DNA of 64,000 nt from Eledone cirrhosa (taxonomy: Eukaryota). The stretch's first letter is position 1; every line of letters starts with the position of its first letter. The notes beneath the pieces are model-generated. The model was not told the DNA's origin and searched no databases. It saw only the letters and a program-made list of their open reading frames with translations. The stretch is from contig OZ024743.1 of NCBI GenBank assembly GCA_964016885.1, positions 189,782,001 through 189,846,000 on the forward strand, given 5' to 3'. Shown in pieces: positions 1,678-56,163 of this stretch. A program made the translations under genes and the position numbers.

Positions 1678-1884
1678 GTATTAATTATACTATTTATGGT
1701 TATGTAAATACAAAAACCTTTTGCAGTTATATGTATTTTTTTATACAAACCTAAATAGTGGTAGGCAGTAATATATTACTAACTTATTACCAGTAAGTTA
1801 AGTAGCTCAATGTAAAAACATGAGATGATTTACAGAGCAGTTATATGAAATATAAGAATCAAAGAACTGTTCAAAACATTTTTG

Positions 1885-1931
1885 TGCTTACAGCTGTTTC
1901 CTCCAAACCGAGGTTTGGATTCTTCGGAGCA
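1885..1931 (-). ncRNA. Type I hammerhead ribozyme, left arm
   Basis: reverse complement of 3378-3424. Confidence 0.75.
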
Positions 1932-3377
1932 ATTTATTAATGAATGGACAGTTATATGACCTCCTTTTCAGCCAAGAGACATACAGATACATATGCAAAT
2001 ATTGTGGGTCAACATTCATTACAGCATTTAGAGTGGCAGTACACACTTCAAGATTACATTCATATTAAAAGGTACAATCAAGAATCAAAAATACAGGTTA
2101 AAATACAACATGAAAATAAGCGGTTATATAGTGCAAATGTTATATGTGTGGCAAGCACGTGCGTCTTGTTTATATAGTGTGGCAGAGAGTTACGTGTAGT
2201 AGGAGCACTTAGGTAGGTAACAAGAGTGTTAGGTTGGTTGATCTGGTGACAAATTCTTTATATGATTGTTATAGTCTGTGTGTGGAGAAATGATATAAGC
2301 ATTAAAAATAGTGCAAGCATTAAAAATATTAAAAGTATTGGAAATGCACAGCGAAAGGATGACAAGGACTTCATGTACTTCGACATTTTCATGGTCAGGG
2401 GAGTGTATTTTTCAGATTATATGCCCCTCACATAATCTACGACAATTCGATATTGAGCGTTTGACAATCCAGTTAGAGAATCGTAGTCTGATGTTCTTTA
2501 GTTCAATACAGGAGGTTGTTACGTTTCGAGAATCGACATTGAATACTACCCGGAAGTGTGTGTGTGGCTAAAGGGAGTTAATGCATGAGGGGAGGTAACT
2601 CCGGGGTTTCTATTCCTGGCTATTGAAATGTGTCTCAATATAGACCCTAATTTCTATGGTTATGCGCAACTTCCAAAACACTTTATACTTTAGAAATTTT
2701 TTGGAAGTTGCCCATAACCATAGAATTTAGGGTCTATATTGAGCCACACACACACTTCCGGGTAGTATTCAATGTCGATTCTCGAAACGTAAAAACCTCT
2801 TGTATTGAACTAAAGAACATCAGACTACGATTCTCTAACTGGATTGTCAAACGCTCAATATCGAATTGTCGTGGATTATGTGAGGGGCATATAATCTGAA
2901 AAATACACTCCCCTGACCATGAAAATGTCGAAGTACATGAAGTCCTTGTCATCCCTTCGCTGTGCATTTCCAATACTTTTAATATTTTTAATGCTTGCAC
3001 TATTTTTAATGCTTATATCATTTCTCCACACACAGACTATAACAATCATATAAAGAATTTGCCACCAGATCAACCAACCTAACACTCTTGTTTACCTACC
3101 TAAGTGCTCCTACTACACGTAACTCTCTGCCACACTATATAAACAAGACGCACGTGCTTGCCACACATATAACATTTGCACTATATAACCGCTTATTTTC
3201 ATGTATTTTAACCTGTATTTTTGATTCTTGATTGTACCTTTTAATATGAATGTAATCTCGAAGTGTGTACTGCCACTCTAAATGCTGTAATGAATGTTGA
3301 CCCACAATATTTGCATATGTATCTGTATGTCTCTTGGCTGAAAAGGAGGTCATATAACTGTCCATTCATTAATAAAT

Positions 3378-3424
3378 TGCTCCGAAGAATCCAAACCTCG
3401 GTTTGGAGGAAACAGCTGTAAGCA
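3378..3424 (+). ncRNA. Type I hammerhead ribozyme, right arm
   Basis: tgct|ccgaaga|a tccaaac-ctcg-gtttgga g|gaaa|cagctg|ta|agca; palindromic helix III, GUA site, U4C core variant. Confidence 0.75.
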
Positions 3425-3544
3425 CAAAAATGTTTTGAACAGTTCTTTGATTCTTATATTTCATATATATATATATATAATATATATATATATAAAATAT
3501 ATATATATAAAATATATATATATATAATATATATATATATTATA

Positions 3545-7866: not shown

Positions 7867-8200
7867 GGAGCCACATGGCTTAGTGGTTAGAGTATTGGCC
7901 TTGCAATCGAAAGGTTGTGAGTTCAATTCTCAGACCGGGTGATGTGTTGTTTCCTTGAGCAAGGCACTTTATTTCACATTGCTCCAGTTTACTCAGCTGT
8001 AAAAATGAGATGATAGGGACTGGGGTCCCTATCATTCCACTGCAAAGTGGACGTGTAGGTGCCACGGCAAAAAAACATCCATCACTCACTGTAAATGAGG
8101 TTGGTGTTAGGAAGGGCATCCAGCTGTAGAAATCAAGCCAGAATCAGTTCCCGTCCCACCCTTGCAAGCAGGGAAAGTGGACGTAAAATGAAATGATGAT
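7867..8200 (+). mobile_element. tRNA-derived SINE with RTE-derived 3' tail (family 1)
   Basis: A box tggcttagtgg, B box gagttcaattc, central ccttgagcaaggcacttt, tail shared with RTE 3' UTR, ends in a tga/aaatg repeat. Confidence 0.85.
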
Positions 8201-14796: not shown

Positions 14797-17700
14797 ATCA
14801 TCATCATCATCATCATCAGGTTTAGCGTCCGTGTTCCACGCTTGCATGGGTTTGGACGGGGGTTTTCCCACTTGAGGCAAGAGTGGTTGTCTTGCTCGCA
14901 TAGGACTGTCTGGCAGGTTTTCTACAGTTGGATGCCCTTCCTAACACCAACCACATTTACAGTGTGGGGCTGGGAGGTTTTTACCGTGTTGCCTACACGG
15001 CCACATTACAGCGTGGACTGTCTGGCGGGTTTTCTACAGCTGGATGCCCTTCCTAACACCAACCACATTTACAGTGTGGGGCTGGGAGGTTTTTACCGTG
15101 TTGCCTACACGGCCACATTTACAGCGTGGACTGTGTGTTTTTTTGTCGTGACACCTACACGATCTCATTTGTTTCGGCCTGGATGTTGTGGGACCAACAT
15201 AACTTTACATTGAAAGGGGCGGTGTGGATGGGGTGGAGGTGGTGGGACGGGGGGGTGTTTTGATAGAGATGCCTACTGACTGTAGTAGGTTTTTACTTTG
15301 TATTTAGGTAAGGCGGGTCTTCTCTATTACTGAGTACCGCCAAAGGTCTCGGTCCAGTGACATTGTCTTGGAGAGGTGTAAGCGTGTGAGGTCGGAATTT
15401 ATCAGCTCGTCCCATGTTTTTCTGGGTCTGCCTACTCCGTGGCTACCGTCTATCTTTATTGCCCTGCACTTTGTTATACAGCTGTCGTCTTTCATGCGCA
15501 TCACGTGACCGTACCAACGTAGCCTTCTCTTGAGTAAACAACATCTGATCCCTCTTATTTCTAATTTTTTCCTCAGTTCGTTTATGCTTTGCCGTTCACG
15601 TATATTACTATTGCACATCCAGCGGAGCATGCAAGCTTCGTTCCTCTCTAGTCTGCGTATATCCTCTGCACACAATACCCAGGTCTCACTGCCATGCAGC
15701 ATTGCTGTTCGTATGCAGGCATCGTATAACCTGCCTTTCATTTTTAGGGAGAACCCTCTAGCGGCTAATAGTGGTATAAGCTCTCTGAACTTTTTCCATC
15801 CAGTTCTCACTCTAGCTACTCTACTTGCAGAGCACCCTCCCCCACTGCTGATTTTGTCACCCAGGTAACGGAAGCTGTCCACAATTTCTATAGAACCCTC
15901 TGCGCAGTTGAAGGAGCTAGTATTTTGTGGGCAATTGCTGCTACTTATTGCACCAGAGCACCGGCCACATGTAAAATCTATGTTCTTAGTTAGCTTACCT
16001 GTGATCCCACTACATCTTTTATGCACCCATACTTTGCATTTGGGACATAAAATGGAGTTTCTACCTACGCCTTTCCTACACACTGAGCATGGCCATTTCC
16101 CAGATGGGACTGCCGCCTTATTTTCTTTCCTACAAACTAGAACTTTAGTCTTAGCCAGGTTAATTTTAAGGCTTTTTGATTCTAGGCCGTGCTTCCATGT
16201 TTGGAATTTCTTCTCTAGTTCAGTCATTGATTCAGCTATGAGCGTTAGATCATCTGCGTATAGGAGTTCCCATGGGCAGCCGGTCTTGAACTCCTCTGTT
16301 ATAGCCTGAAGGGCAATAATAAATAGTAGGGGGCTAAGAACAGAGCCCTGATGTACACCAACTTTTACCCTAAACTCTTCACTATATTCGTTGTTAATTC
16401 TAACCTTACTGACTGTTTCTTTATACATGGCTTGTATAGCTCTCACAAGCCATTCGTCAACACCTAGTTTTCTAAGAGACCACCAGATAATGGAACGGGG
16501 GACTCTGTCGAAGGCTTTCTCCAAGTCGACGAAAGCTAAGTATAGGGGTTTACTTTTAGCTAGGTACTTCTCCTGTAGTTGTCGTACAATGAAAAGAGCG
16601 TCTGTGGTACTTTTGCCTGACACAAATCCGAACTACATTTCATCTAGATCAATTCTCTCTCTGATTAGTTGCGCTATTACTTTTTCCGTGACCTTCATGA
16701 CCTGGTCGATTAATTTAATGCCTCTATAGTTACTCCTATCTAGGGCATCTCCTTTTCCCTTATAGCAGTTAACGATGATGCTGCTACGCCAGTCTTTCGG
16801 AACAACCCATTCTGTACGACTTGGTTAACTATCCGGGTGACCATGGTGTGTCCCACCGAACCAGATGCCTTCAGCATCTCAGCAACTATTTCCGAAGGAC
16901 CAGCCGCCTTACCCGTCTTCATATCTTTGATTGCCTTGCTTATTGTACTACCCTGGACTAACACTGCTGGTTCCTCTATTGGGTCGATGTGGGGGAGACT
17001 GTCTTTCTCCCATTTGTTCTCCTCATTTAGAAGCCTTTCGTAGTGACACTTCCAAGCTACCTTCTTATCAGCGTCGGTGATGGCAAGTATGCCATCATCG
17101 TTAAGTACACACTTCTCCCCGACAATATCACGGTTTTCCTTGACACATTGCCTGGCAATCCTGAACACCTCACGTTTTTGGTCCTCACGTTGTAGAACAT
17201 GCTTGAACTTTCTTTCCTCTGCTTCCCTTCTTGCGAAGTACACTTGTCTCCTAGCTTCTCTCCTGGCCACTTGATAGTCTTCTCTACTTCCCCCATCCCG
17301 CCATGCTTTCCAAGCCTGCTTTTTGGCCTTAATTGACTCCTCCACCTTACTGTTCCACCACCATGTTACTCTCCTCCTACCTACAGGCCTGCTCCAGCCA
17401 CAGACTTCGTCTGCCACCGTCAGCAGGTTTGCTCTCAGGAATTCCCACTGTTCCTCTATATTATACGACTCTAATTGCTCTTCCTTACTGTCGAAAGCGT
17501 CAAGTAATATGCTTTGAAATTTATTTCTGGCTATGGGGTCCTTTAGCTTCCATATTTTTCTCCTGAGGATAGTCCTCTTCCGCTGTCTAGTACGTCTCGT
17601 CCTGACTATGAGGTCGCTAATTATCAGTCTATGTTGGGAGGTGAATTCTTCATGGGGGAGGGATTTAGTGTTAACAACAGACACTCTGTCACGTCTTCTG

Positions 17701-18410
17701 GTAAGGATATCATCTACCTGGCTTGTGTGTTCCCCCGATCTATAGGTGATCAAGTGATTGTCTCGTTTTTTGAAGTTAGTGTTACAGATAGTTAAGTTAT
17801 TTGCGTCGCAGAATTCCAGGATTCTGGAGCCTTCCTCATTTCTAGTACCGAACCCATAGCCTCCATGGATTCCGTCATAGCCGTCACAATGTTGTCCAAC
17901 GTGACCATTTAGGTCGCCTGCAATAACTATATAGTCACTGTCGGTTATTTGGGAGGTAGCGAGCATCAGTGTCTCGTAGAATCTGTCTTTTATAGCACCG
18001 GGCAGTCCGGATTGTGGTGCGTACGCAGATATTACTGTCACCGTAGTTTTATTGAGGACAAGTCTTATTTTAATTATTCTGTCGTTCACTCTATTTACGT
18101 CTATTATCTTATCTGCCCACTTTTCTGCTACCATGATTCCTACCCCACCCAACCCATTGTCATTTCCCACCCAGAAAAGCTTATAGCATCGTTCTTTACC
18201 CACGATGAATCTAGCCGACCCTCCCCTCCACCTGGTCTCTTGAATACAACAAACATCGACCTCCTTACGTTCAAGCATTTCTACAACCTCGTTAGAGCGA
18301 CCCTTTAAGGTGCCTACATTCATGGTACCAACTCTGAAGTTTTGGATTGCGTTTGGAGGGTGGGAGCAGTGGGGCGCGGGGGGGGGGGGAGGGTTATGTT
18401 AGCCATCCTG
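14797..18410 (-). mobile_element. Near full-length RTE-clade LINE (APE + RT with PHD finger)
   Basis: APE motifs NVGTL, CIQETRW, GDLNGH, SQHRL; RT DLEKAFD, HQGSVLSP, YADD; 3' UTR with two ~112 bp tandem units; (TGA)n tail. Confidence 0.95.
15304..18323 (-). pseudogene. RTE ORF (APE-RT-PHD), disrupted
   Basis: ORFs 16740-18323 and 15304-16623 join through a frameshift near 16805 and an in-frame TAG near 16634. Confidence 0.9.
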
Positions 18411-18438
18411 TATGTATATATATATATATATATGTATG

Positions 18439-18499
<61 letters not shown>

Positions 18500-18519
<20 letters not shown>

Positions 18520-18769
18520 AGATATATATAGTTCAATAATAAACAAGAAACAACACACAGATGCATATGCATCTATGTATAAAAATATATTGGTGAAGAC
18601 GACAGAATAACAAACAAAACAGAGAGAGTCCAAAATCTTCAGTCGATCACAGGAGATATGTTGTTTTAAGATCGATATAACTGGATTAAGCACACACACA
18701 CGCACAAACACACACGCATACACATATATATATATACATAAACATACATGTATCATATATATGTACATA

Positions 18770-18775
<6 letters not shown>
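18500..18775 (-). repeat. ~280 bp segment duplicated in inverted orientation at 25215-25490
   Basis: near-identical reverse complements, with matching ORF translations at 18394(-) and 25226(+). Confidence 0.9.
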
Positions 18776-18841
<66 letters not shown>

Positions 18842-18843
<2 letters not shown>

Positions 18844-19891
18844 GGGAGGGTGCTCTGAAAGTACAGTAGCTAGAGTCAGAACTGGATGGAAAAAGTTCAG
18901 AGAGCTTATACCACTATTAGCCGCTAAAGGGTTCTCCCTAAAAATGAAAGGCAGGTTATACGATGCCTTGCATACGAACAGCAATGCTGCATGGCAGTGA
19001 GACCTGGGCATTGTGTACAGAGGATATACGCAGACTAGAGAGGAACGAAGCTTGCATGCTCCGCTGGATGCGCGATAGTAATATACGTGAACGGCAAAGC
19101 ATAAACGAACTAAGGAAAAAATTAGAAATAAGAGGGATCAGATGTTGTTTACTCGAGAGAAGGCTACGTTGGTACGGTCACGTGATGCGCATGAAAGACG
19201 ACAGCTGTATAACAAAGTGCAGGGCAATAAAGATAGACGGTAGCCACGGAGTAGTCAGACCCAGAAAAACATGGGACGAGCTGATAAATTCCGACCTCAC
19301 ACGCTTACACCTCTCCAAGACAATGTCACTGGACCGAGACCTTTGGCGGTACTCAGTAATAGAGAAGACCCGCCTTACCTAAATACAAAGTAAAAACCTA
19401 CTACAGTCAGTAGGCATCTCTATCAAAACATACCCCCGTCCCACCACCTCCACCCCACCCACACCGCCCCTTTCAATGTAAAGTTATGTTGGTCCCACAA
19501 CATCCAGGCCGAAACAAATGATATCGTGTAGGTGTCACGACAAAAAAACACACAGTCCACGCTGTAAATGTGGCCGTGTAGGCAACACGGTAAAAACCTC
19601 CCAGCCCCACACTGTAAATGTGGTTGGTGTTAGGAAGGGCATCCAGCTGTAGAAAACCCGCCAGATAGTCCACGCTGTAATGTGGCCGTGTAGGCAACAC
19701 GGTAAAAACCTCCCAGCCCCACACTGTAAATGTGGTTGGTGTTAGGAAGGGCATCCAACTGTAGAAAACCTGCCAGACAGTCCTATGCGAGCAAGACAAC
19801 CACTCTTGCCTCAAGTGGGAAAACCCCTGTCCAAACCCATGCAAGCGTGGAACACGGACGCTAAACCTGATGATGATGATGATGATGATGA
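18842..19891 (+). mobile_element. 5'-truncated copy of the 14797-18410 RTE
   Basis: near-identical to the reverse complement of 14797-15843, with scattered substitutions and a frameshift near 18968; (TGA)n tail. Confidence 0.95.
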
Positions 19892-19898
19892 TATATAT

Positions 19899-20030
19899 AT
19901 AAATTAATAAAATAATGAATAAACAAAGAAACAGTTCCTTATATTAAAAAATTCATCATTTTACGATCGTTTCTAGGATATATATGTGTTAGAGTTGGTA
20001 TGCATATTCTATAGATCTATGTACAAATAT
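19899..20030 (-). repeat. Inverted partial pLTR at the 5' end of the Naiad element
   Basis: reverse complement of ~20826-20958 (HHR helix II apex to 64 nt past the cleavage site). Confidence 0.9.
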
Positions 20031-20054
20031 ATATATATATATATGTGTGTATAA

Positions 20055-20130
<76 letters not shown>

Positions 20131-20761
20131 TTTATATTCTTTTAATTTCCCCTCATCTTTAACAGCACTTTTCAACTGCATCTAACTCTTATTTATCATA
20201 TCTATATGTATTAGTATAATTTTATCAATATAAATATACCCATCAATTAAATTAATTTATATTCTATTCATACATGTATTTTTTTCACTAACATTCTTAT
20301 CTTAAAACTTTAGTCACCTTAGATATTTGTATTGGCATTACTATTTTATAACAGCAACTGCTTGTATACCTTTTACTGACCACCTGACCTATTTACACCC
20401 CTAAAATAAGCTTCAATTACTACTATTTTACCACTTGGCCAATTATTAACTTTCTATTGGTTAATTCTAAACCTCTTACCAAACAGACAGAATATATTAG
20501 ATCTTTGTTGGTTTTATTCAATGAACAAATAAAATTATTTCTGAGGTCAGCATAAGACCTATTTCTTCCCTAAAATAATCCTTCATTCATAATATTCTTT
20601 TCCATCCAAAACTGAAATCTACCTTCCTCTACCCATAATTTAAGGTTCTTCTACTACTATATTACTATCCTGACCCTCACTATCTCTCTATTGGTCAATT
20701 CAAAACCTGTTCCCAAGTAGACCTATTGTATTGAATCTTTGTTTTTTTCAATAAACAAATA

Positions 20762-20903
20762 TCATTATTTCTGAAGACAGCATATATATGTGTAGGTATG
20801 TATATTCCCTCTGATAGTTTGTATAAATATTGTACATAGATCTATAGAATATGCATACCAACTCTAACACATATATATCCTAGAAACGATCGTAAAATGA
20901 TGA
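20762..20903 (+). ncRNA. Type I hammerhead with long helix II (5' pLTR)
   Basis: 9 bp helix I tcattattt/aaatgatga; canonical CUGAAGA; helix II with atatatatgtgt/acacatatatat and ggtatgtatattc/gaatatgcatacc; GAAA cgatcg; GUA. Confidence 0.85.
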
Positions 20904-21238
20904 ATTTTTTTAATATAAGGAACTGTTTCTTTGTTTATTCATTATATTATTAATTTATCTTGACTCTGTTTTCCGTTTATTTTTCACCGAAATAGTTTTT
21001 GAATGCATCTTCTCTTTTCATGATATCCGGATTATATTGAGTTCTTCATACGGATTGGACACTACCGTAAACTTTTGGTAGATTTATCTACATACTTTGC
21101 TCCTATTTTCATGGGGATATTCTTATTTTTATATTGTATGTGTATATATATTTATATATATATACATATATGTGTATAACTTTATAACTCCATATACGAA
21201 TAGTTGAGCTCTTTTTCTTATCCATTATCCATATCACA

Positions 21239-23688
21239 ATGGAAAAACAATACTTGGGAACTTCTTTAAAGAATATACCATTACCTTCTAAGGATGATTT
21301 CTTACTTCTTATGATACAAAAAACCAACCAATTTATCAGAAGAATCAGATGGAGGGCCTACCACTTCGATAAAAAAACAAAATGTACTGATAGGAAATAT
21401 TTGTATGATTTCACTACATATAAAAATCCACCACACAACTCCTTACTTGAAAACTTTGAGAAAGACCTTTTTAATTTAATCAAACACCTCAAATTTAAGA
21501 GGTATAAATCTAATTTTCAAAAGGACCTTGATTCTACCCTATTGGACCTAAAAAAATATAAAAAAATCCATGTCCACTCGGACAAAACTGGAAATCTATA
21601 TCACAGGGATATTGAAAATTACAATGAGTTCATATATAAAGAACTCAGGAAAAATTATAGAAAAACAAATAATGCGTCACTTACCAACATCAACAACAAA
21701 ACACACAGCATAGTGAATAGACTTAATATTGAAGATAGAACTGAACCTTTGGCATTGAAAAGACCACACTTCAATCTGAAAGATCATAAATCTAACTTTA
21801 ACTCTAATCCTTCTATAAGGCTTATATGCCTTTCCAAATCTGATATTGGAATAATTAGTAAAAAAATTTTAGATAGAGTCATCCCACCACTAAGAAAACA
21901 TGTTAATTTACCACTCTGGGAAAACACATCCCAGGTAATTAACTGGTTAAATAATATTAGAAATAAATCCTCTGCTTCATTTCTACAATTTGATATAGAT
22001 AATTATTATTATTCTATATCACCTATACTCCTGAACAAAGCCTTGATATTTGCTAAAAATAGATCTAACTTAACTTTGGATGACATTAATATTATTACAC
22101 ATGCTAGACTAACACTATTGGAATTTCAGAATAAATACTGGACCAGAAACACATATAGTAATCTATTCGATATTACTATGGGCTCAAGCGATTCTGCCCA
22201 AATTACTGATCTTGTAGGCCTCTTTCTTCTTTTTAACATAAATGCTTCTTTTCCCCACCTTAAAGGTGGTTTATATCGTGACCACTGTCTTCTTCTTTCC
22301 AATAACCTTAGCCTCTCAGAGATAGAAAAAAATAAAAAGCTTATTAGAACTTTCCACAAAGACTATTATAGTCTAGATATTACATTTGAAAACACAAGTA
22401 AAGTAGTTAATTTCCTAGATATAACATTAGACTTATCTACGGGTATCTACCAACCTTACCATAAACCCAACCAAAATTTACACTACATACACTCACAATC
22501 TAATCACCCTAAATCTATCCTTAAAAACCTTGCATATAATATATCACTTAGAATTTCTAACCTTTCGTCTAACCAAGATGTATTTGATAAAAATGCGACC
22601 TTTTATAACGAAGCTCTAGCTAGAAGTGGCCACAAAAATAGATTAGTATATATACCTTCTACCAATAACACTACAAACATACAACCTAATATTACCAACA
22701 AACACCAAATGAAACATACACACCTAAATGCCACTCACAATATACCCCAAAACACCAACATAAAACCAAATTTCTCTAACTCTTCTAATATACAGTATAG
22801 TAACTCTCAAAAAACTACTCATCCTACAACTCTAATAAATGTTAATAATAAAACTCCTAATAAACAAGCTAAAACACCTAAATCAATAAACTAAAAATGT
22901 GTGTGGTGAGGTCATTAACAATAATTCTCTTAATAAACATCAGGATGCATCCTAAAAAAACAATAAACAACATCGAAACCGTAATAGACGAGTTACTTGG
23001 TACAATGCTCCATTTAATTTACAAATTAAGGATAATATACCTAAAAATTTTTTTAATATCCTAGAGAAAAACTTCCCGCCAAACCACAAATACCATCAAA
23101 TCTTAAATAGATCAACGGTTAAATTCTCCTACTCAACAACCAAAAACATAAAACAAAATATAAGTGCCTATAATGCATATAAATGTAAAAAAAACCATGA
23201 GTATACCACCAGTACATCAAACTAACCATAATATCTCCTCAGATACAGGATTCACGAAAAGTTGTAACTGTAGAAACAAGGCAAACTGTCCATTAAAAGG
23301 AAATTGCCTTGTTAATAACATAGTATATAAATGTAAAGTTAACACTAAGGACTCAATTTATTCATATATAGGAGCTACCTCTAACAAATTTAAGGTAAGA
23401 TTTAATACCCACAAACATAGTTTTAAAAATGCCGCACTAGCTAATACAACATCTCTAGCTGAAATAATAAATAGTTATAGAAAGAGGAATATAGAATATG
23501 ACCTGACATGGAGTGTGCTCAAAAGGGCCACCCCTTATCAAAATAGTAGAAATGAATGTAGATTATGTTCCCAAGAACTTTTTGAAATAATGAAATCTAA
23601 GGATATCCTATTAAATAAGCGACAGGAATTAATAATATCGTGTAATCATAAACTGAGAAAAACCTTTAAATATTATAAACCTAATTAA
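21239..23688 (+). pseudogene. Naiad RT + CxC-C-C linker + GIY-YIG endonuclease, disrupted
   Basis: LQFDI, ITMGSSDSA, GLYRDH (catalytic YRDD changed to YRDH), VNFLDITL, VTWYNAPF, CNCRNKANCPLKGNC, IVY...YIG, CRLC; frameshifts/stop at ~22890-22955 and ~23190. Confidence 0.9.
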
Positions 23689-24188
23689 TATACACTTTAG
23701 AAATTAATTTATAAATTATTTTTAATTTAGTTAACCTATAATTAATATTCTACTACTGATGAACTACATAATTTTGCTTTCCTTCTTACAAATATCATTT
23801 CCTAAAACTGATACCATTAAGTAAACATATATAATGCTTTAACTTCAGGTTATGACTCTATGTTCCTTGAAAACTATATATATTTACTATTTCTCACTAA
23901 TAAATTTAATCCCCCCCCCCCAATAATTATATGTATATATAAGTGTATATGTGTGTGTATATATATGTGTATGTATGTATATGTGCATGTATATATCTAT
24001 GTATATATATATATATATATATGTGTGTGTATATATATGTATATATATATGTATATATGTGTGTATGTGTGTGTGTGTATGTGTATATATATGTATATAT
24101 ATATATATGTAAGTGTATATATATATAAATATATATGTATATGTGTGTATGTGTATATATATGTATATATATATATATGTGTGTATAA

Positions 24189-24224
<36 letters not shown>

Positions 24225-24855
24225 TTTATATTCTTTTAATTTCCCCTCATCTTTAACAGCACTTTTCAACTGCATCTAACTCTCATTTATCATATCTATA
24301 TGTATTAGTATAATTTTATCAATATAAATATACCCATCAATTAAATTAATTTATATTCTTTTCATACATGTATTTTTTTCACTAACATTCTTATCTTAAA
24401 ACTTTAGTCACCTTAGATATTTGTATTGGCATTACTATTTTATAACAGCAACTACTTGTATACCTTTTACTGATCACCTGACCTATTTACACCCCTAAAA
24501 TAAGCTTCAATTACTACTATTTTACCATTTGGCCAATTATTAACTTTCTATTGGTTAATTCTAAACCTCTTACCAAACAGACAGAATATATTAGATCTTT
24601 GTTGGTTTTATTCAATGAACAAATAAAATTATTTCTGAGGTCAGCATAAGACCTATTTCTTCCCTAAAATAATCCTTCATTCATAATATTCTTTTCCATC
24701 CAAAACTGAAATCTACCTTCCTCTACCCATAATTTAAGGTTCTTCTACTACTATATTACTATCCTGACCCTAACTATCTCTCTATTGGTCAATTCAAAAC
24801 CTGTTCCCAAACAGACCTATTGTATTGAATCTTTGTTTTTTTCAATAAACAAATA

Positions 24856-24997
24856 TCATTATTTCTGAAGACAGCATATATATGTGTAGGTATGTATATT
24901 CCCTCTGATAGTTTGTATAAATATTGTACATAGATCTATAGAATATGCATACCAACTCTAACACATATATATCCTAGAAACGATCGTAAAATGATGA
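24856..24997 (+). ncRNA. Type I hammerhead with long helix II (3' pLTR)
   Basis: copy of 20762-20903, 4094 bp downstream. Confidence 0.85.
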
Positions 24998-25184
24998 ATT
25001 TTTTTAATATAAGGAACTGTTTCTTTGTTTATTCATTATTTTATTAATTTATCTTGACTCTGTTTTCCGTTTATTTTTCACCGAAAGTAGTTTTTGAATG
25101 CATCTTCTCTTTTCATGATATCCGGATTACATTGAGTTCTTCATACGGATTGGACACTACCGTAAACTTTTGGTAGATTTATCT

Positions 25185-25222
<38 letters not shown>

Positions 25223-43075: not shown

Positions 43076-43308
43076 GTTAGTATTATTCAGAAAAGGGCAT
43101 ACTAATTTGCATATAGTTAGTGCTCATGCTGGTAATTAATTAAGAAGTGTAGTCACAGATGAAGTGTATAATACAGTTATATCTGTATAGAAACAGTTTG
43201 TAATCGAAACAGCACCAACATGTATAAATGTATACACACATCAAATATGTAAACATGTAAACATAACAGAAAATAGAAGTTTCCCTGTAAATTGAAAAAA
43301 TCATAAAC

Positions 43309-43353
43309 ACATTTAATCGATTTTCAGATCCATTTGGAGCCTCGTCAGAATAC
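43309..43353 (-). ncRNA. Type I hammerhead ribozyme, canonical core
   Basis: gtatt|ctgacga|ggctcc-aaat-ggatct|gaaa|atcgat|ta|aatgt. Confidence 0.75.
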
Positions 43354-44094
43354 CTGTATATCATCCAACCAACCACAAGGAAACATGTATTCGATAGGTA
43401 TATATACCATTTGTTCTTAGTTGTTTTCTACATTTAGATAAATAATAATTTCAACACCACACATGCACACTTGTAGGTCAGCAAAACACCACATACATAC
43501 AAATATGATAAATGCCATATACACACAATCGTGCCCACAACTTCGCCACACATGCATTTAACTCCATAGTACACAAACTCATCTAATTAAAAAAAATGTT
43601 CAAATAAATGTTTACTTCTGCTAGTAATTTAAGTGTTAGCTTAGCAACCAGTAACAAATATAACTAAAAGAACTCAAACTAATACACGGACTTGAAATTA
43701 CGACAACAATTGTAATATAGACTAGATGATCTATGAGCTTTTGAGATAACTAAAAAAAAGCTTCTTTTGTTAACAGATATATTTAGTTTTTCAATGGGTG
43801 ACCAGCCTACTCTTTGATCAGTATGAGCTAACCTCTTATTGAGGCATCAATTCCATGGCTCTGTTGTCTGCAAATTGGGAAAAACATGCCTGCTGGTAGA
43901 TGCACATACACACACACCCACATAAATCTTCAATATATAGAATTCTACCTCCTCTTAACAATTCTATCTTATCCATCCCTACATAAGTATAAAATACAGA
44001 TACACATAGACACACACATACATATACACACTTACACAGTTACATGCCCACACACGCAACCACTCCTTAAATATATAAAAATGTATGTATGTGT

Positions 44095-46880
44095 CATCAT
44101 CATCATCACCGTATTACGTCCGTTCTTCTACGCTAGCATGGGTTAGACGGGTTGTCGGCAGTGTCCAGTCGGCTGAACTTGTCTTGCTCATACAGGAACT
44201 GATTCTGGCCTGATTTCTTCAGCTGGATGCCCTTCCTAACACCAACCTCATTTACAGTGAATGCTGGGTGCTTTTTTTCTGTGGCAGCTACACGTCCACT
44301 TTACAGTTAGGGCTGGATGCTTTTTTGCCATGGCACCTCCACGACCACTTTGCAGGAGGCGGGGGCATATTGTCTATATGCTTCAGCTTTGGCTTGTTCC
44401 TGTAGGAAGTCGAGTCTTCTGTTTTACTGCGTGACGCCAGAGTCGCGGTCGTGTGACATTGCCCTTGAGAGGTGCAATTGGGTAAGGTTGGCTTTTATCA
44501 CCTCATCCCAGGTCTTCTTGGGTCTCCCCACTCCACGGTTTCCATCGACTTCTAGTGCTTAGCACCTTTTTATGCAGCTCTCTTCCTTCATATGCATCAC
44601 ATGTCCATACCAACGTAACCTCCTCTCCTGCACACAGCATTTGATTCCTCTTATGCTCAGTCTCTCTCTCAGTTCGTTTATGCTTTGCCGTTCGCGTATA
44701 TTACTATTACACATCCATCGGAGCATGGAAGCTTCATTTCTTTCTAATCTGCGCATGTCTTCTACAGACAATGCCCAGGTCTCACTACCATGTAACATGT
44801 TACTTTCATGACCTGGTCCATCAGCTTTATACCTCTATAGGTTCCTCTATCTAGTGCATCACCTTTACCTTTGTAGCAGTTGACACTAATACTGCTGCAC
44901 CAATCCTTTGGTATGATACCCTCTAGTATTACCTGGTTAACAATTCATGTGGTTGAGGTGTGACCTACCGACCCAGATGCCTTCAGCATCTCGGCAGCTA
45001 TACCAGATGGACTTGTTGCTTTCCCTGTCTTCTTACTTTTGATTGCCTTACTTACTACGCTGCTGCTGACTTGTACTGCTCTACAGTTTTCGCTTGGGGT
45101 AGGGTCTCTTTTTCCCATGCATTCTCCTCGTTTAGTAATCTTTCATAATGGCTCTTCCATGCAGCTTTCTTCTCGTCATTTGTGAGGGCAAGTTCACCAT
45201 TATCATTCCGGATACACTTCTCTCCAATGACATCACAATTCTCTCTGACACACTGCCTCACAATCTTGAACACCTCCTGTTTCTGGTCCTCACGTTGCAA
45301 AACATGCTTGAATTTTCTATCCTCTACTTCCCTTCTAGCTAAGTATACTTGTCGCCTAGCTTCCCTCCTGGTCTCTGTAATGTACCCTGCTACCCCCGGT
45401 CTTCCATTCTTTCCATGCCTGTCTCTGTAATGTACCCTGCTATCCCCGGTCTTCCATTCTTTCTATGCCTGTCTCTTAGCCTTAACTGCCTCGTCTACCT
45501 TATTGTTCCACCACTAAGTCACTCTCCTCCACCCTGTGGACTTGCTCCAACCACAGACCTCATCTGTCGCCTTTAGTAAGTTATTTTTTAGGATCTCCCA
45601 GTGCTCTTCTACATTGAATGTCTCTATCTGTTCTTCTTTACTGTCATAGGCGTCGAGTAGAATATATTTAAACATGTTACTGACTGAGGGGTCTTTCAGC
45701 TTCCAGATCTTTCTTTCCCAGGTTGCCTTCTGTTTCCAAGTTCGTCTAGTTTTGAAAGTGAGGTCGCTGACAACTAAGTTATGTTGGGAGGTACATTCCT
45801 GCCTAGGGAAGGCTTTTGTGTTTATAACCATCTATCTATCATGCCCTCTGATGAGGATAAAATCTATCTGACTAGAATGCACCCCTGATTTATAGGTGAT
45901 CAGATGGTTGTCGGGTTTTTTGAAGTTTGTGTTACATATCGACATGTCATTGGCACCGCAGAATTCCAGAAGCCTGAAGCCTTCTTCATTTCTTGTGCCA
46001 AACTGGTGGCCTCCATGGACACTATAGAAGCTGTCACTGTGTTTACCAATGTGTCCGTTAAAATCTCCTGCAATGATTAGGAAGTCATTGTCGTGTGTTA
46101 GGGCAGCAGTGTGCATTAGGGACTCGTAAAACCTATCCTTAAGTTCGTATGGCAACCCCAATTGGGGTGCGTAAGCTGATACTATTGTGGTAATTGTTTT
46201 ATTCAGGACTAGTCTGAGTTTAATGATTCTTGCATTCACCCTGTTCACTGAGATTACCTTATCAACCCATTTATCAGCTAATAGTATATCTACACCTCCC
46301 ATCCCGTTGTCATTTCCCACCCAGAAAAATTTGTAGCATTGACTTTTGCCTACGCGGACTCTAGCACAGTGCTTCTCAAACTATCTGATGTGGCAAACCG
46401 GCATTTTTATTTTTAATGTGCCACGTACCGCTAATATTTCGTAGTAATATTAATTTATACCGGAAACGATAAATATAATGAATATAATAATAGTTGACCA
46501 TTTTTTTATCCTCTATTTATTTTGTAAACAAATAATACAATATCAAAACATATAAAAAAGTAATCAAATAAATTCCTCAAATGATTCCTTAGCATGTCCT
46601 GGACACTGGCCGCGTACCGGTAGCTGATGGCTTGAGTACTGGCACCAGACTCTCTAGCGGACTCTCCTCTCCACCTACATCTCCAGCATACATCAAATTC
46701 CTTTCGCTCTAGCATCTCTACAATTTCTCCTGCTCTTCCTTTCATCGTGCTTACATTGATGCTTCCAACTCGGAGTTTTGGACATTTGCCATCACTCGTA
46801 GGATGGGGTGAATTTTTGTGGGGAGGGGGGGCGAATGCTTCCTGTCTCTGGATTAAAGCTTTGCATGGGTGTTTGGTAGC
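44095..46880 (-). mobile_element. Older RTE subfamily copy with the RT core deleted
   Basis: APE segments at 45514-46800; DQVMKV joined directly to MLHGSETW near 44797; 50 bp tandem duplication 45368-45476; (CAT)n tail. Confidence 0.88.
46367..46651 (+). mobile_element. hAT/Charlie-like MITE lacking its right TIR
   Basis: starts CAGTGCTTCTCAAACT; 8 bp TSD-like ctctagca/ctctagcg; interrupts the RTE APE region. Confidence 0.55.
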
Positions 46881-52620: not shown

Positions 52621-53867
52621 TATATTTATTTATCATACCACACTAATAGTCAAGATGTTCAGGAAAGACAGAGAACAAGAAAATAAAAACAAAAAACAAA
52701 ACAAATTAAATGTGAATACTTAGCATTTATTTATATTTTTGTGAGTTGTGACAGGGAACAGATGAATTCTTAATCTTCCCTAAGTAAATAGCTAAATATT
52801 CTGAAGACCAATACAGGGCAGATAATTTGTAACTTACTTATAAACAAAATACATTCCGCAATTTCTGTCAAGACAGTGTATGGCTATAACAATGCATCTA
52901 TATGTAAGGTTATTTATGTATCAATAGAATTCAGTATTCATGTGTATTTGCATACTATTATATACATATGTATGTAAGGATGTGTGAGCAAGTGTATGTT
53001 TTTCAGCTTTTATGATGGGTGGAACTACTAAAGCAAGAGCTATAATGCAATTCAGAAGGTAGATAATGTAATAGAAATCAATAGAAAGACATTGTGTAAA
53101 TCCAATTAAGGGAACTCTGCAATGTTTCCTAGCCAAAGAACAGTAAAAAGAAATAAAACATGCCTAATTATGCCATTCTGTTGTAAATGGCAATATCGGT
53201 TTTGAAGAAGCACAAATACGGCACATAAAGTAAGGCAGTAAACTTGGTAAGTAAGTACCACTAATGGACTGATTAAAGATGATATATTAGTGGTATTCTA
53301 GTGAAATTAATATCGAAAATGTATTAGAAAACGGCCATTCAATGTGCTCCTGAAATTGAAAACACCTGTCCTATATAACATTGTTACACTAGTAACATGT
53401 AGAAATACAGTCATAAATAGAATATATATTCATATATATATATAAATTATGTATCAGGTATTGTGGAGCTGTTCTTAAGTGGAGAGGGCTAATAAAGCAA
53501 AGCCTATGTGTGTGTGCACGCACAGACATGCATTTATATATATTAAATGACATGGTATGAAATGATTTAGAGTGTTGAGTGTGTAAATATTTCATAAAAT
53601 AGTAAGAATCTCTAACACCAAAATAGCTGTAAAACAGCCAGCTGCTACGATAATCATAGCAAAGAGGCAGGTTAAATCAAAACCTCTTAATAAATGGAAG
53701 ATAGATAGATAGATATATAGAGAGAGAGCAAAAAAAGTTTAGTAGGGAGAGAGAGAATGAAAGTAGTAGAGCATATAGCATATAATGGGAGATGGGACAG
53801 ATAGAGAGAAGAAAGAGTGATTGAGAGTGGTAGAACATATAAGATAACATAAAAACCCCTCAGAAAA

Positions 53868-54090
53868 CTGGCACATTTGGTTACAATGATGAGTGTTCCA
53901 GTTGATCTGATCAATGGAACAGCCTGCTCATGAAATTAATGTGCAAGTGGCTGAGCATTCCACAGACTTGCATACCTTTAATGTAGTTCTCAGGGATATT
54001 CAGCATAACACAGAATGTGAAAATGCTGGACCTTCAAATTACAGGTACAACTCATTTTTACCAACTGAGTGGAGTGGGGCAACATGAAAT
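53868..54090 (-). mobile_element. Deu/Nin-domain-type SINE fragment
   Basis: ggaacagcctgctcatgaaattaatgtgcaagtggctgagcattccacagac, recognised from memory as a common cephalopod SINE body. Confidence 0.55.
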
Positions 54091-54130
54091 TTATTTATCA
54101 GATTACACAAAATAGTGAAACAGTAAGATG

Positions 54131-54638
54131 GCAATGCTTGCTACTGCTGGACTTGAAAACAGTCGGGAATATATAGTTTTCTCATCTGTGTAAATAAGGT
54201 GATTAATGAAGCTGCATAAGTTGGCTCACCTTATAATAGAAAAGAAATAAGACTTCGCTTCAAGCATAGCTTTATACAATATGTATAGAAATTTCGTATT
54301 TCTAAAGAAATACGGTTTTAGAAAGCTGTAGCTATGCTAACACCCTCTGGTGGTGTCCAGCAGAAGCAAGCAGTGGGAGGGACCGTCCTGATGAAGAGCA
54401 TTCGCAACTGTTTTCAAGTCCAGCTGTAGCAAGCGGTGGGAGGGACCATCCTGATGAAGACCAGTCAAGCCTGAAATGCATAGACGGTTGTCCCCCTTGC
54501 TTCTGGTGGATACCACCAGAGGGCGTTCGCCCCAGTGTTTGCATAGCTATGGCTTCCTAAAACCGTATTTCTGTAGAAATACGAAATTTCTATACATATT
54601 GTATAAAACTATGCTTGAAGCGAAGTCGTATTTCTTTT
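54131..54638. mobile_element. Rod-like palindromic element with an apical hammerhead
   Basis: arms 54240-54370 and 54496-54638; loop holds two CUGAUGA half-motifs and one 3' half; extra inverted copy of loop sequence at 54131-54170. Confidence 0.75.
54445..54488 (+). ncRNA. Type I hammerhead ribozyme, canonical CUGAUGA
   Basis: accatc|ctgatga|ag...ct|gaaa|tgca|ta|gacggt; helix II is weak. Confidence 0.7.
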
Positions 54639-54660
54639 ATATATATATATATATATATAT

Positions 54661-54990
54661 TTTCATTTCATTTCATTCATTTCATTCATTTTACGTCCAC
54701 TTTTCCCTGCTTGCAAGGGTGGGACAGGAACTGATTCTGGCTTGATTTCTACAGCTGGATGCCCTTCCTAACACCAACCTCATTTACAGTGAGTGCTGGG
54801 TGCTTTTTGGCCGTGGCACCTCCACGAATGATAGGGATCCCAGTCCCTATCATCTCATTTCTACAGCTGAGTAAACTGGAGCAACGTGAAATAAAGTGTC
54901 TTGCTCAAGGAAACAACACATCACCCGGTCTGAGAATTGAACTCACAACCTTTCGATTGCAAAGCCAATGCTCTAACCACTAAGCCATGT
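54661..54990 (-). mobile_element. SINE family 1
   Basis: reverse complement of 7867-8200. Confidence 0.88.
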
Positions 54991-55239
54991 ATATATTTTT
55001 ATTTGTTTGACCCGAATATATATATTTTTATTTGTTTGACCCGAATTACTTGGTCGTTTTTGTGGCTGTGCGGATGATTGTTTAACCATCGTCTCAGTGT
55101 GTTTGTCCTTTAATGTATGTTGTAGCTCTGGTTCATCTGAATCATTGAGCGCTTGCCACACATCTCGGAAGTTGTTTTTCATTAATTCCTAAGCCGAAAT
55201 ACGATTCTCGCTAATTTATATATATATATATATATATAT

Positions 55240-55546
55240 CTTGCAATCGAAAGGTTGTGAGTTCAATTCTCAGACCGTGTGATGTGTTGTTTCCTTGAGC
55301 AAGACACTTTATTTCACATTGCTCCAGTTTACTCAGCTGTAGAAATGAGATGATAGGGCCTGGGGTCCGTATCATTCCACTGCAAAGTGGTTGTGTAGGT
55401 GCCACGGCAAAAAAGCACCCACCACTCACAGTAAATGAGGTTGGTGTTAGGAAGGGCATCCAGCTGTAGAAATTAAGCCAGAATCAGTTCCCGTCCCACC
55501 CTTGCAAGCAGGGAAAAGCGGACGTAAAATGAAATGAATGAAATGA
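55240..55546 (+). mobile_element. SINE family 1, 5'-truncated
   Basis: matches 7900-8200. Confidence 0.88.
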
Positions 55547-56163
55547 TATATGGGGGTTGCAATTACATATGAAGCAAACTGTCACTCTCTGTAATTTGTT
55601 TACTAATATATGTAAATGTATATAATAAAATATGTATAGGATATATAGGTTGTTCTTACTTAGCCTCTGATCAGCTGACCAGCCTTGTTTGTTTCAAATA
55701 GTCACATACTAATGCTATTCCAGCCATGATCATTTTGTGCACATTTTCTTTATTTAGAATTACATTATTCAATATGACAGGAGAGTCAGATTTGTAACAA
55801 TTTTGGCTGCTCTCTCTAGCATGCCAAGCAACTGCACATGTGTTACATTATTGACTCATGTATTTTTGGTAAGACAATGAGTATTTGTAACAGAGGCTTC
55901 CTGTCGTTGAAAGCCATCAGCTTATTGAAATATCTTACTGAACATACTACTATGACTGGCGATGTAACAATGCTACTGAATTTCCCTTTCAGTTTTAGAG
56001 AAACTGAGAACTAGCTGTAATTGTTAGTGACTACCATGGAAAAGGGATATCATTTTTTTTGAAAATTAGAATTAATTGATTTACAAACGTTGAAGAAGAA
56101 ATATCTAATCTTTGCAAAGAGAAACTGTGCACATGTCTTAGTCTATTAGATTTTACCAGCATG

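Follow-up and report, generated by a model that had tools for sequence, protein, structure and literature searches.

Non-LTR retrozymes of metazoans have been described as non-coding repeats of 150–450 nt with a GC content under 50%, each carrying one canonical type I hammerhead with a palindromic helix III (Cervera and de la Pena 2020, PMC7229834). According to the accessible part of that paper, they are species-specific, occur in many copies arranged as head-to-tail arrays, have target-site duplications of > 4 bp when these are present, and form self-paired circles in which the hammerhead helices can form; the unit lengths given are 220–245 nt for coral, 350–390 nt for mussel, and 330 and 350 nt for axolotl, with mollusc examples among those known. 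Further invertebrate retrozymes are held in its supplement, and in the accessible main text no cephalopod family is named and the word "inverted" occurs 0 times. No description of a cephalopod retrozyme was found in the literature searched, which took in few of the subscription papers, and in the available text on the giant squid genome 235 Rfam hammerhead matches are tallied but not analyzed further (PMC6962438). The hammerhead form with a palindromic helix III is presented, in the available sections of PMC4209133, as one that works in dimers.

Li, Clavereau and Pollet (2026, bioRxiv 10.64898/2026.07.22.740005) regard retrozymes as non-autonomous derivatives of Penelope elements, a model that predicts dispersed monomer and dimer copies and a reliance on Penelope enzymes and that rests, in the portion of the preprint available, on co-occurrence and on homology to Penelope terminal repeats (pLTRs) in 35 vertebrate species, with no mollusc among them. 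Insertions of Penelope-like elements are characterized, as far as the accessible accounts go, by an inverted 5′-truncated copy, a tail of 30–40 bp and often (TA)n targets (PMC8557442, PMC3846280), and a Penelope protein is reported to cut and extend both target strands (available text of PMC11167929).

Here we compare with these systems a locus at 54131–54638 of the window, i.e., the whole 64-kb stretch of DNA that was analyzed, which consists of AT-rich animal repeat DNA with LINE-type reverse transcriptases, SINEs and microsatellites. Our preferred reading, to which we assign a probability of roughly 0.7, is that the locus is an animal non-LTR retrozyme with a 308-nt unit and one type I hammerhead, inserted with a Penelope-like inverted-copy pattern.

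Layout of the locus and its repeat unit

The inverted arms of about 130–140 bp reported in the initial annotation are present (54236–54370 vs. 54496–54642, with 125 of 135 aligned bases complementary and one 12-nt indel in the alignment; 108 nt at 93% plus 35 nt at 89% in the inverted-repeat listing), as are the smaller palindrome inside each arm (54295–54314 and 54564–54583, the latter listed on the forward strand as a small unit hairpin from sequence repeats and folding) and the repeat with a 63-nt period (54355–54403 vs. 54418–54466, 43 of 49 positions identical). The long hairpin was also recovered, the fold of 54131–54638 reaching –255.4 kcal/mol (z –16.6, 0 of 100 shuffles as low), a stability that is expected for any 135-bp inverted repeat. 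The arms are not the ends of the repeat, since the left copy extends 100 nt past the arm edge at 54236, down to 54136.

Alignment placed both halves of the locus as pieces of one circularly permuted unit (308 nt, 42% GC), which we numbered with position 1 at 54400. An inverted, 5′-truncated copy occupies 54136–54370 on the minus strand, as seen in its alignment to the forward copy and in a family depth that begins at about 54136 in the own species and is nil in the one other species compared. It comprises unit positions 97–308 and the first 35 nt of the next unit, its start (unit position 97) lies 13 nt past the hammerhead cleavage site, and its left edge at 54136 is uncertain by about 4 nt. 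The outer 35 nt of this copy (54136–54170, minus strand, unit 1–35) are an inverted match to 54400–54434 (32 of 35 identical), the 35 nt immediately upstream of the proximal hammerhead; the unit is therefore circularly permuted or tandem. This terminal redundancy is also borne out by an opposite-strand joint at 54136–54436 (70 raw reads, 1 start), which at another locus ties the left-copy end to the hammerhead in the way expected of a tandem unit, though on a single read start; no array with two whole hammerheads was seen among the reads. The forward copy (54400–54637, plus strand, unit 1–238; alignment, folding and own-species family depth) runs up to a (TA)n run at 54638–54660 at the right end, a possible target site recognized from sequence and listed with no strand.

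Between the two copies lie a 16-nt strand-switch site (54355–54370, plus strand), identified by side-by-side comparison and DNA duplex energy, and a 27-nt junction fragment (54371–54397, plus strand, unit about 35–61). The former can be read in two ways, directly as the 5′ strand of the ribozyme's extended helix I or, reverse-complemented, as the 3′ strand, and its DNA duplex with 54136–54152 amounts to –18.4 kcal/mol with one internal mismatch. The junction fragment is a direct repeat of 54434–54460, has the lowest raw-read depth of the element, and holds the distal half-core CUGAUGA (54388–54394) without a helix II partner of its own. The head-to-head layout of the unit, with the strand switch at 54355–54370, accounts for the 63-nt repeat, the apical hammerhead and the arms that extend helix I; that they extend helix I and not helix II, as had been pointed out, fits a strand switch inside the extended helix I. 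The rod of about 400 nt that had been taken for an RNA unit consists of one linear unit present twice, the copies facing opposite ways, and both the rod and its second half-site are by-products of how the locus copy was inserted.

The unit has neither a poly(A) nor a tRNA head, the locus is bounded on both sides by a 3′ end of the unit, neither of which carries a tail tract, and no second copy of the unit occurs within the 64-kb window. A target-site duplication, which the initial annotation had suggested looking for, was not found; none adjoins the right end, and a 5-nt word beyond the neighbouring SINE pair lies away from any edge. The ATT beside the left end equals the cut motif given for the anole Penelope protein in the accessible part of PMC11167929; being 3 nt in AT-rich DNA, it carries no evidential weight. 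An open frame of 55 codons (54476–54640), with its ATG within helix III, is probably due to chance.

Several other repeats in the window are also arranged as inverted pairs. Directly to the right of the locus, two tRNA-derived SINE copies form such a pair at 54676–55542 (arms of 287 nt, 93–96%), with other copies of the same SINE at 7873–8176 and 44192–44294; we take this SINE to resemble octopus SINEs. A 730-bp inverted repeat (98.5%) with a 120-nt palindrome at its apex (2629–2748) spans 1842–3467, and 921-bp inverted repeats (99%) enclose LINE-type endonuclease and reverse transcriptase ORFs at 14797–19889. Among 120 listed relatives of one window ORF, the only 2 named proteins are Octopus gene models (30–43% coverage). 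Together with the likeness of the SINE, this gives weak support to an octopus as the probable host, a point on which none of the other results hinges.

The hammerhead motif and its family

Both CUGAUGA halves named in the initial annotation are in place, starting at 54388 (distal) and 54451 (proximal), together with the single GAAA half at 54473, the palindromic helix III and the cleavage triplet AUA at 54480–54482; helix I pairs 6 of 6 bp with the distal half and 5 of 6 with the proximal one. The proximal motif (54445–54488, plus strand) is a type I hammerhead of canonical size, as judged from sequence, a descriptor with shuffles, majority letters in reads, and folding. Its helix I has 6 bp (54445–50 with 54483–88), its core consists of 54451–57 and 54473–76, helix II has 4 bp and a 7-nt loop (54458–72), helix III (54476–81) is a 6-nt palindrome, and cleavage is predicted from the sequence to occur after 54482. 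Within one unit, imperfect pairing of 54418–54450 with 54483–54514, supported by alignment and folding, gives an extended helix I (54418–54514, plus strand). The locus copy has two helix mismatches, at 54448 (helix I) and 54460 (helix II), the A–C mismatch at the third helix II pair being present in both the distal and the proximal half. The type I descriptor matched the proximal motif; among shuffled sequences, any match at all arose 1 time in 5000 for the 512-nt region and 3 times in 200 for the whole window. Searches with Rfam returned 0 matches at the gathering score across the 64-kb window, and 6 weak matches with 0 hammerheads among them at E ≤ 10 for 53800–55700. A second, unrelated type I hammerhead-like motif was observed on the minus strand at 43304–43354, with an intact core, a helix II of 5/6 bp, a short A-rich loop, a palindromic helix III and a weak helix I; no other copy of it and its surroundings exists within the window.

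For the family as a whole, 4 of the 23 listed sequencing runs (own species plus two runs of another species) were mapped onto 53800–54650 at 80% likeness. Contig depth in the own species, which in this mapping is not a copy number, was 3,803–169,168 over 54119–54650 vs. 4.7–12.6 on the unique flank, with 22–116 different own-species contigs per position among the rows listed. In the two runs of the other species (X14 and X16) depth was zero in 17 of 17 bins over 54119–54611, and the same runs do cover the neighbouring fragment at 53875–54090, a truncated high-copy SINE-like repeat that the other species also has; the word shares of 6–10% in these runs come from this fragment, not from the unit. 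The unit is a multi-copy, lineage-restricted, non-coding family in the host genome. A hammerhead-region pattern gave 0 matches in viral contigs, and a first search of metagenome contigs gave 0 matches as well. A single metagenome-contig match (L001) was rejected as chance, as it covers 19 nt only in DNA of 70% GC.

Family letters could be read from the 40 of 258 difference rows listed. The pairing G at 54448, which completes helix I, is found in 400 of 411 raw reads (reduced-representation reads, biased to few loci) and in 15,531 of 16,570 of contig depth, so the mismatch recorded earlier in proximal helix I is real at the locus but private to this copy and foreign to the family; it is a CG to CA change of the CpG-decay type. 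At 54460 the pairing G, which completes helix II, accounts for 47,562 of 49,281 of contig depth but for only 211 of 447 raw reads, which leaves A to a large subfamily or to a few loci of high depth. In the hammerhead position numbering, 54455 is the variable core position N7, and it varies here too (C in 181 of 421 raw reads). With the family majority letters, the motif has the canonical type I form, i.e., a helix I of 6 bp, a helix II of 4 bp and a short palindromic helix III. According to the available part of bioRxiv 10.64898/2026.07.22.740005, 1 of 9 Xenopus retrozyme constructs cleaved in vitro, and a good-looking motif may therefore not cut.

A monomer circle was built from both copies of the locus and folded as a circle, with a predicted energy of –86.3 kcal/mol (z –3.8, 0 of 100 shuffles as low). 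The predicted probability of helices I and II rose from 0.00–0.01 as is to 0.66–0.98 with the majority letters at 54448 and 54460, and that of helix III was 0.0 with or without them. A self-paired monomer circle with the hammerhead free to fold is thus predicted once the two majority letters are in place.

The letters of the locus copy itself also record part of its history. At 54253 in one arm and 54625 in the other there is, in unit sense, a G that is rare in the family (A in 121 of 123 and 496 of 497 raw reads, respectively), and the junction fragment and the proximal motif have in common a T at N7 and an A in helix II; these shared letters indicate that the segments derive from one template or subfamily, and later conversion between the arms may have taken place. 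Over 165 paired positions there are 12 differences, with the family letter in the left copy at 6, in the right copy at 2 and in neither at 1, the remaining 3 lying outside the difference rows listed, and one family CG is CA in one arm and TG in the other. The arms, 7% diverged from each other without compensation, mutated independently after insertion, and the locus copy is probably inactive.

Insertion pattern and competing explanations

As in the metazoan non-LTR retrozymes of the accessible part of PMC7229834, the unit is non-coding and of fitting size and composition, has one canonical type I hammerhead with a palindromic helix III, and occurs in many copies with a species-specific sequence, the comparison being with two runs of one other species. 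It differs from them in that the locus is a head-to-head pair and not a head-to-tail array, and that it has no target-site duplication. The pair resembles insertions of endonuclease-bearing Penelope-like elements, in which, as far as the available descriptions go, an inverted 5′-truncated copy adjoins a forward copy head to head with a palindrome at the junction; further points of likeness are the (TA)n run as a possible target and a hammerhead in the repeat (PMC8557442, PMC3846280, PMC11167929). The 35-nt redundancy at the left end, seen at one locus, has the size of the 30–40 bp Penelope tail and may correspond to it. Unlike the Penelope-like insertions in these accounts, the unit has no ORF or element body, is 308 nt long and permuted, and its junction uses the ribozyme's own extended helix I and contains an extra, duplicated half-core.

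By analogy with the known family (accessible part of PMC7229834), transcripts longer than one unit would cut themselves at the hammerhead, with the palindromic 2-bp helix III pointing to a dimeric fold for cutting, and the resulting monomers could be circularised and returned to DNA by a reverse transcriptase that an autonomous element, most probably a Penelope-like one, supplies. The locus itself would have arisen when two cDNAs running in opposite directions, or a single cDNA folding back on itself, were joined at the 16-nt complementarity, with a second jump duplicating the half-core. We infer this order of events at the junction from one locus, and the 63-nt duplication could postdate the insertion.

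A Penelope-like element with Hydra-clade motifs lies within the same window (19999–25190), with ORF pieces at 21188–22894 and 23164–23688 in which RWR, DKT and GIY-YIG-like motifs were read by eye; the ORF pieces lie between 1.1-kb direct repeats (96.8%), which contain an internal repeat of 234 nt. Retrozymes are expected to coexist with autonomous Penelope-like elements, and this one is at most a putative partner; it has no sequence similarity to the unit. Hydra-clade Penelope elements are said to have a hammerhead, and none was found in the repeats of this element. Pfam gave no family for its ORFs, nor for the 3 scanned of their 122 relatives, and no parent pLTR of the unit was found within the 64-kb window. 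An inverted 177-nt piece stands beside the element at 19900–20076.

The initial annotation had suggested a viroid- or retrozyme-like rod RNA, or a hybrid of a MITE and a hammerhead, with alternative folds and two competing catalytic half-sites. Of this, the link to a hammerhead-bearing retrozyme is right, while the rod RNA as a unit, the MITE hybrid and the competition between half-sites find no support. The locus shares a rod-like fold and a hammerhead core with hammerhead viroids and viroid-like rod RNAs, but its rod is formed by two genomic copies of one sequence in host repeat DNA and is not itself the repeated unit, and it has one complete hammerhead in one polarity. A viroid-like rod RNA does not fit the locus, the rod being made of two smaller units, the one pattern used having no match in viral contigs, and folding of the free rod predicting no hammerhead. 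This rod, apex included, might still be amplified and transcribed as an element of its own, with an alternative hammerhead built on the distal half-core, and some observations lean that way: the distal helix I forms in the free rod with a predicted probability of 0.90–1.00, the distal fold with an open core lies only 4.8 kcal/mol above the ensemble (16.7 kcal/mol for the proximal fold), contig depth in the junction bin (54380–54408) is still 6,044, in part because the sequence there fits two places, and a further joint of opposite strands, at 54420–54461, is seen in a contig of depth 180, so that inversions elsewhere around the hammerhead may be present and repetitive. Yet the core is paired up in the free rod, helix II pair probability stays at ≤ 0.013, and a distal helix II of 2 bp would have to enclose an insert of 78 nt (probability 0.01); for the genomic rod, whose arms diverged without compensation, folding predicts neither hammerhead. 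The distal half moreover sits in the bin with the lowest raw-read depth (about 4 vs. 28 and 50 alongside and 419–577 over the proximal hammerhead, in the same biased reads), no joint matching the apex of the locus is among the 15 of 172 joints listed, and another contig runs from 54370 into plain unit. We consider such an amplified rod quite improbable. That the locus is a MITE whose apex looks like a hammerhead by chance is exceedingly improbable and largely refuted, for although long inverted arms stand beside a TA run and no Rfam hammerhead match was obtained, the rarity of descriptor matches in shuffles, the restoration of both helices by family letters, the continuation of the repeat beyond a left arm that is not terminal, the lack of a target-site duplication and the poor read coverage of the apex all speak against it.

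The remaining alternatives concern the kind of element to which the unit belongs and the enzyme that moved it. The unit could be the pLTR of an autonomous Penelope-like element, with the locus representing two short truncated ends in the usual inverted arrangement; the insertion pattern would be the same (available part of PMC8557442), truncated Penelope ends with hammerheads are described as abundant in animals, with opposite-strand pairs 100–700 bp apart in Schistosoma (available part of PMC4209133), and the 55-codon frame starts in helix III much as the ORF of the anole element starts within the hammerhead (accessible text of PMC11167929). We regard this as unlikely, because the 3′ end of the left copy runs straight into the sequence upstream of the hammerhead, so that an ORF would have no space there, and a read joint reveals the same continuity at another locus. 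The helices of 6 and 4 bp are moreover those of canonical tandem-repeat hammerheads and not of the minimal Penelope type with a helix II of 7–8 bp (PMC4209133, in the part available), and no protein relative of the 55-codon frame came up at E ≤ 0.01, in a weak test with 1 candidate. The unit does not have the build of an autonomous element, with a reverse transcriptase plus GIY-YIG ORF between pLTRs, as the longest frame examined in it is that of 55 codons and the end of the unit joins its start. We consider it very improbable that the family is a satellite or SINE-like repeat that owes its spread to a LINE enzyme or to processes at the DNA level. Under that explanation the inversion would stem from LINE twin priming or a repair fold-back and not from Penelope, and it draws on twin priming by L1 and on a window rich in LINE-type reverse transcriptases and large inverted duplications of other sequences. 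LINEs have also been named as possible retrozyme partners (PMC7229834, accessible part), but the unit lacks the poly(A) or tRNA head, and its outer 3′ ends the tail tract, that would speak for such an origin, and the 35-nt redundancy and the (TA)n end fit the available descriptions of Penelope.

Implications for retrozyme mobility

A retrozyme inserted with a Penelope-like pattern, our preferred reading, would add a probable cephalopod retrozyme family, and what makes it valuable is the family as a whole, since the ends of its many copies could be used to test the role of Penelope enzymes in retrozyme movement. The enzyme that moves animal retrozymes has so far been argued from co-occurrence and sequence likeness, and the sign offered here is the insertion pattern. 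Head-to-head junctions might in addition recur at the extended helix I, whose stem would let two Penelope-made cDNAs anneal, with some rods amplified and giving transcripts with an apical split hammerhead; the contig joint at 54420–54461, among the 15 of 172 joints listed, would be compatible with this, and we hold this extension to be rather unlikely. If it were true, the family would document naturally how integration of the Penelope type comes to its end, and would directly demonstrate the movement of retrozymes by Penelope enzymes. As it stands, the presence in a hammerhead retrozyme of the inverted-copy arrangement known from Penelope insertions lends Penelope a modest and independent piece of support.
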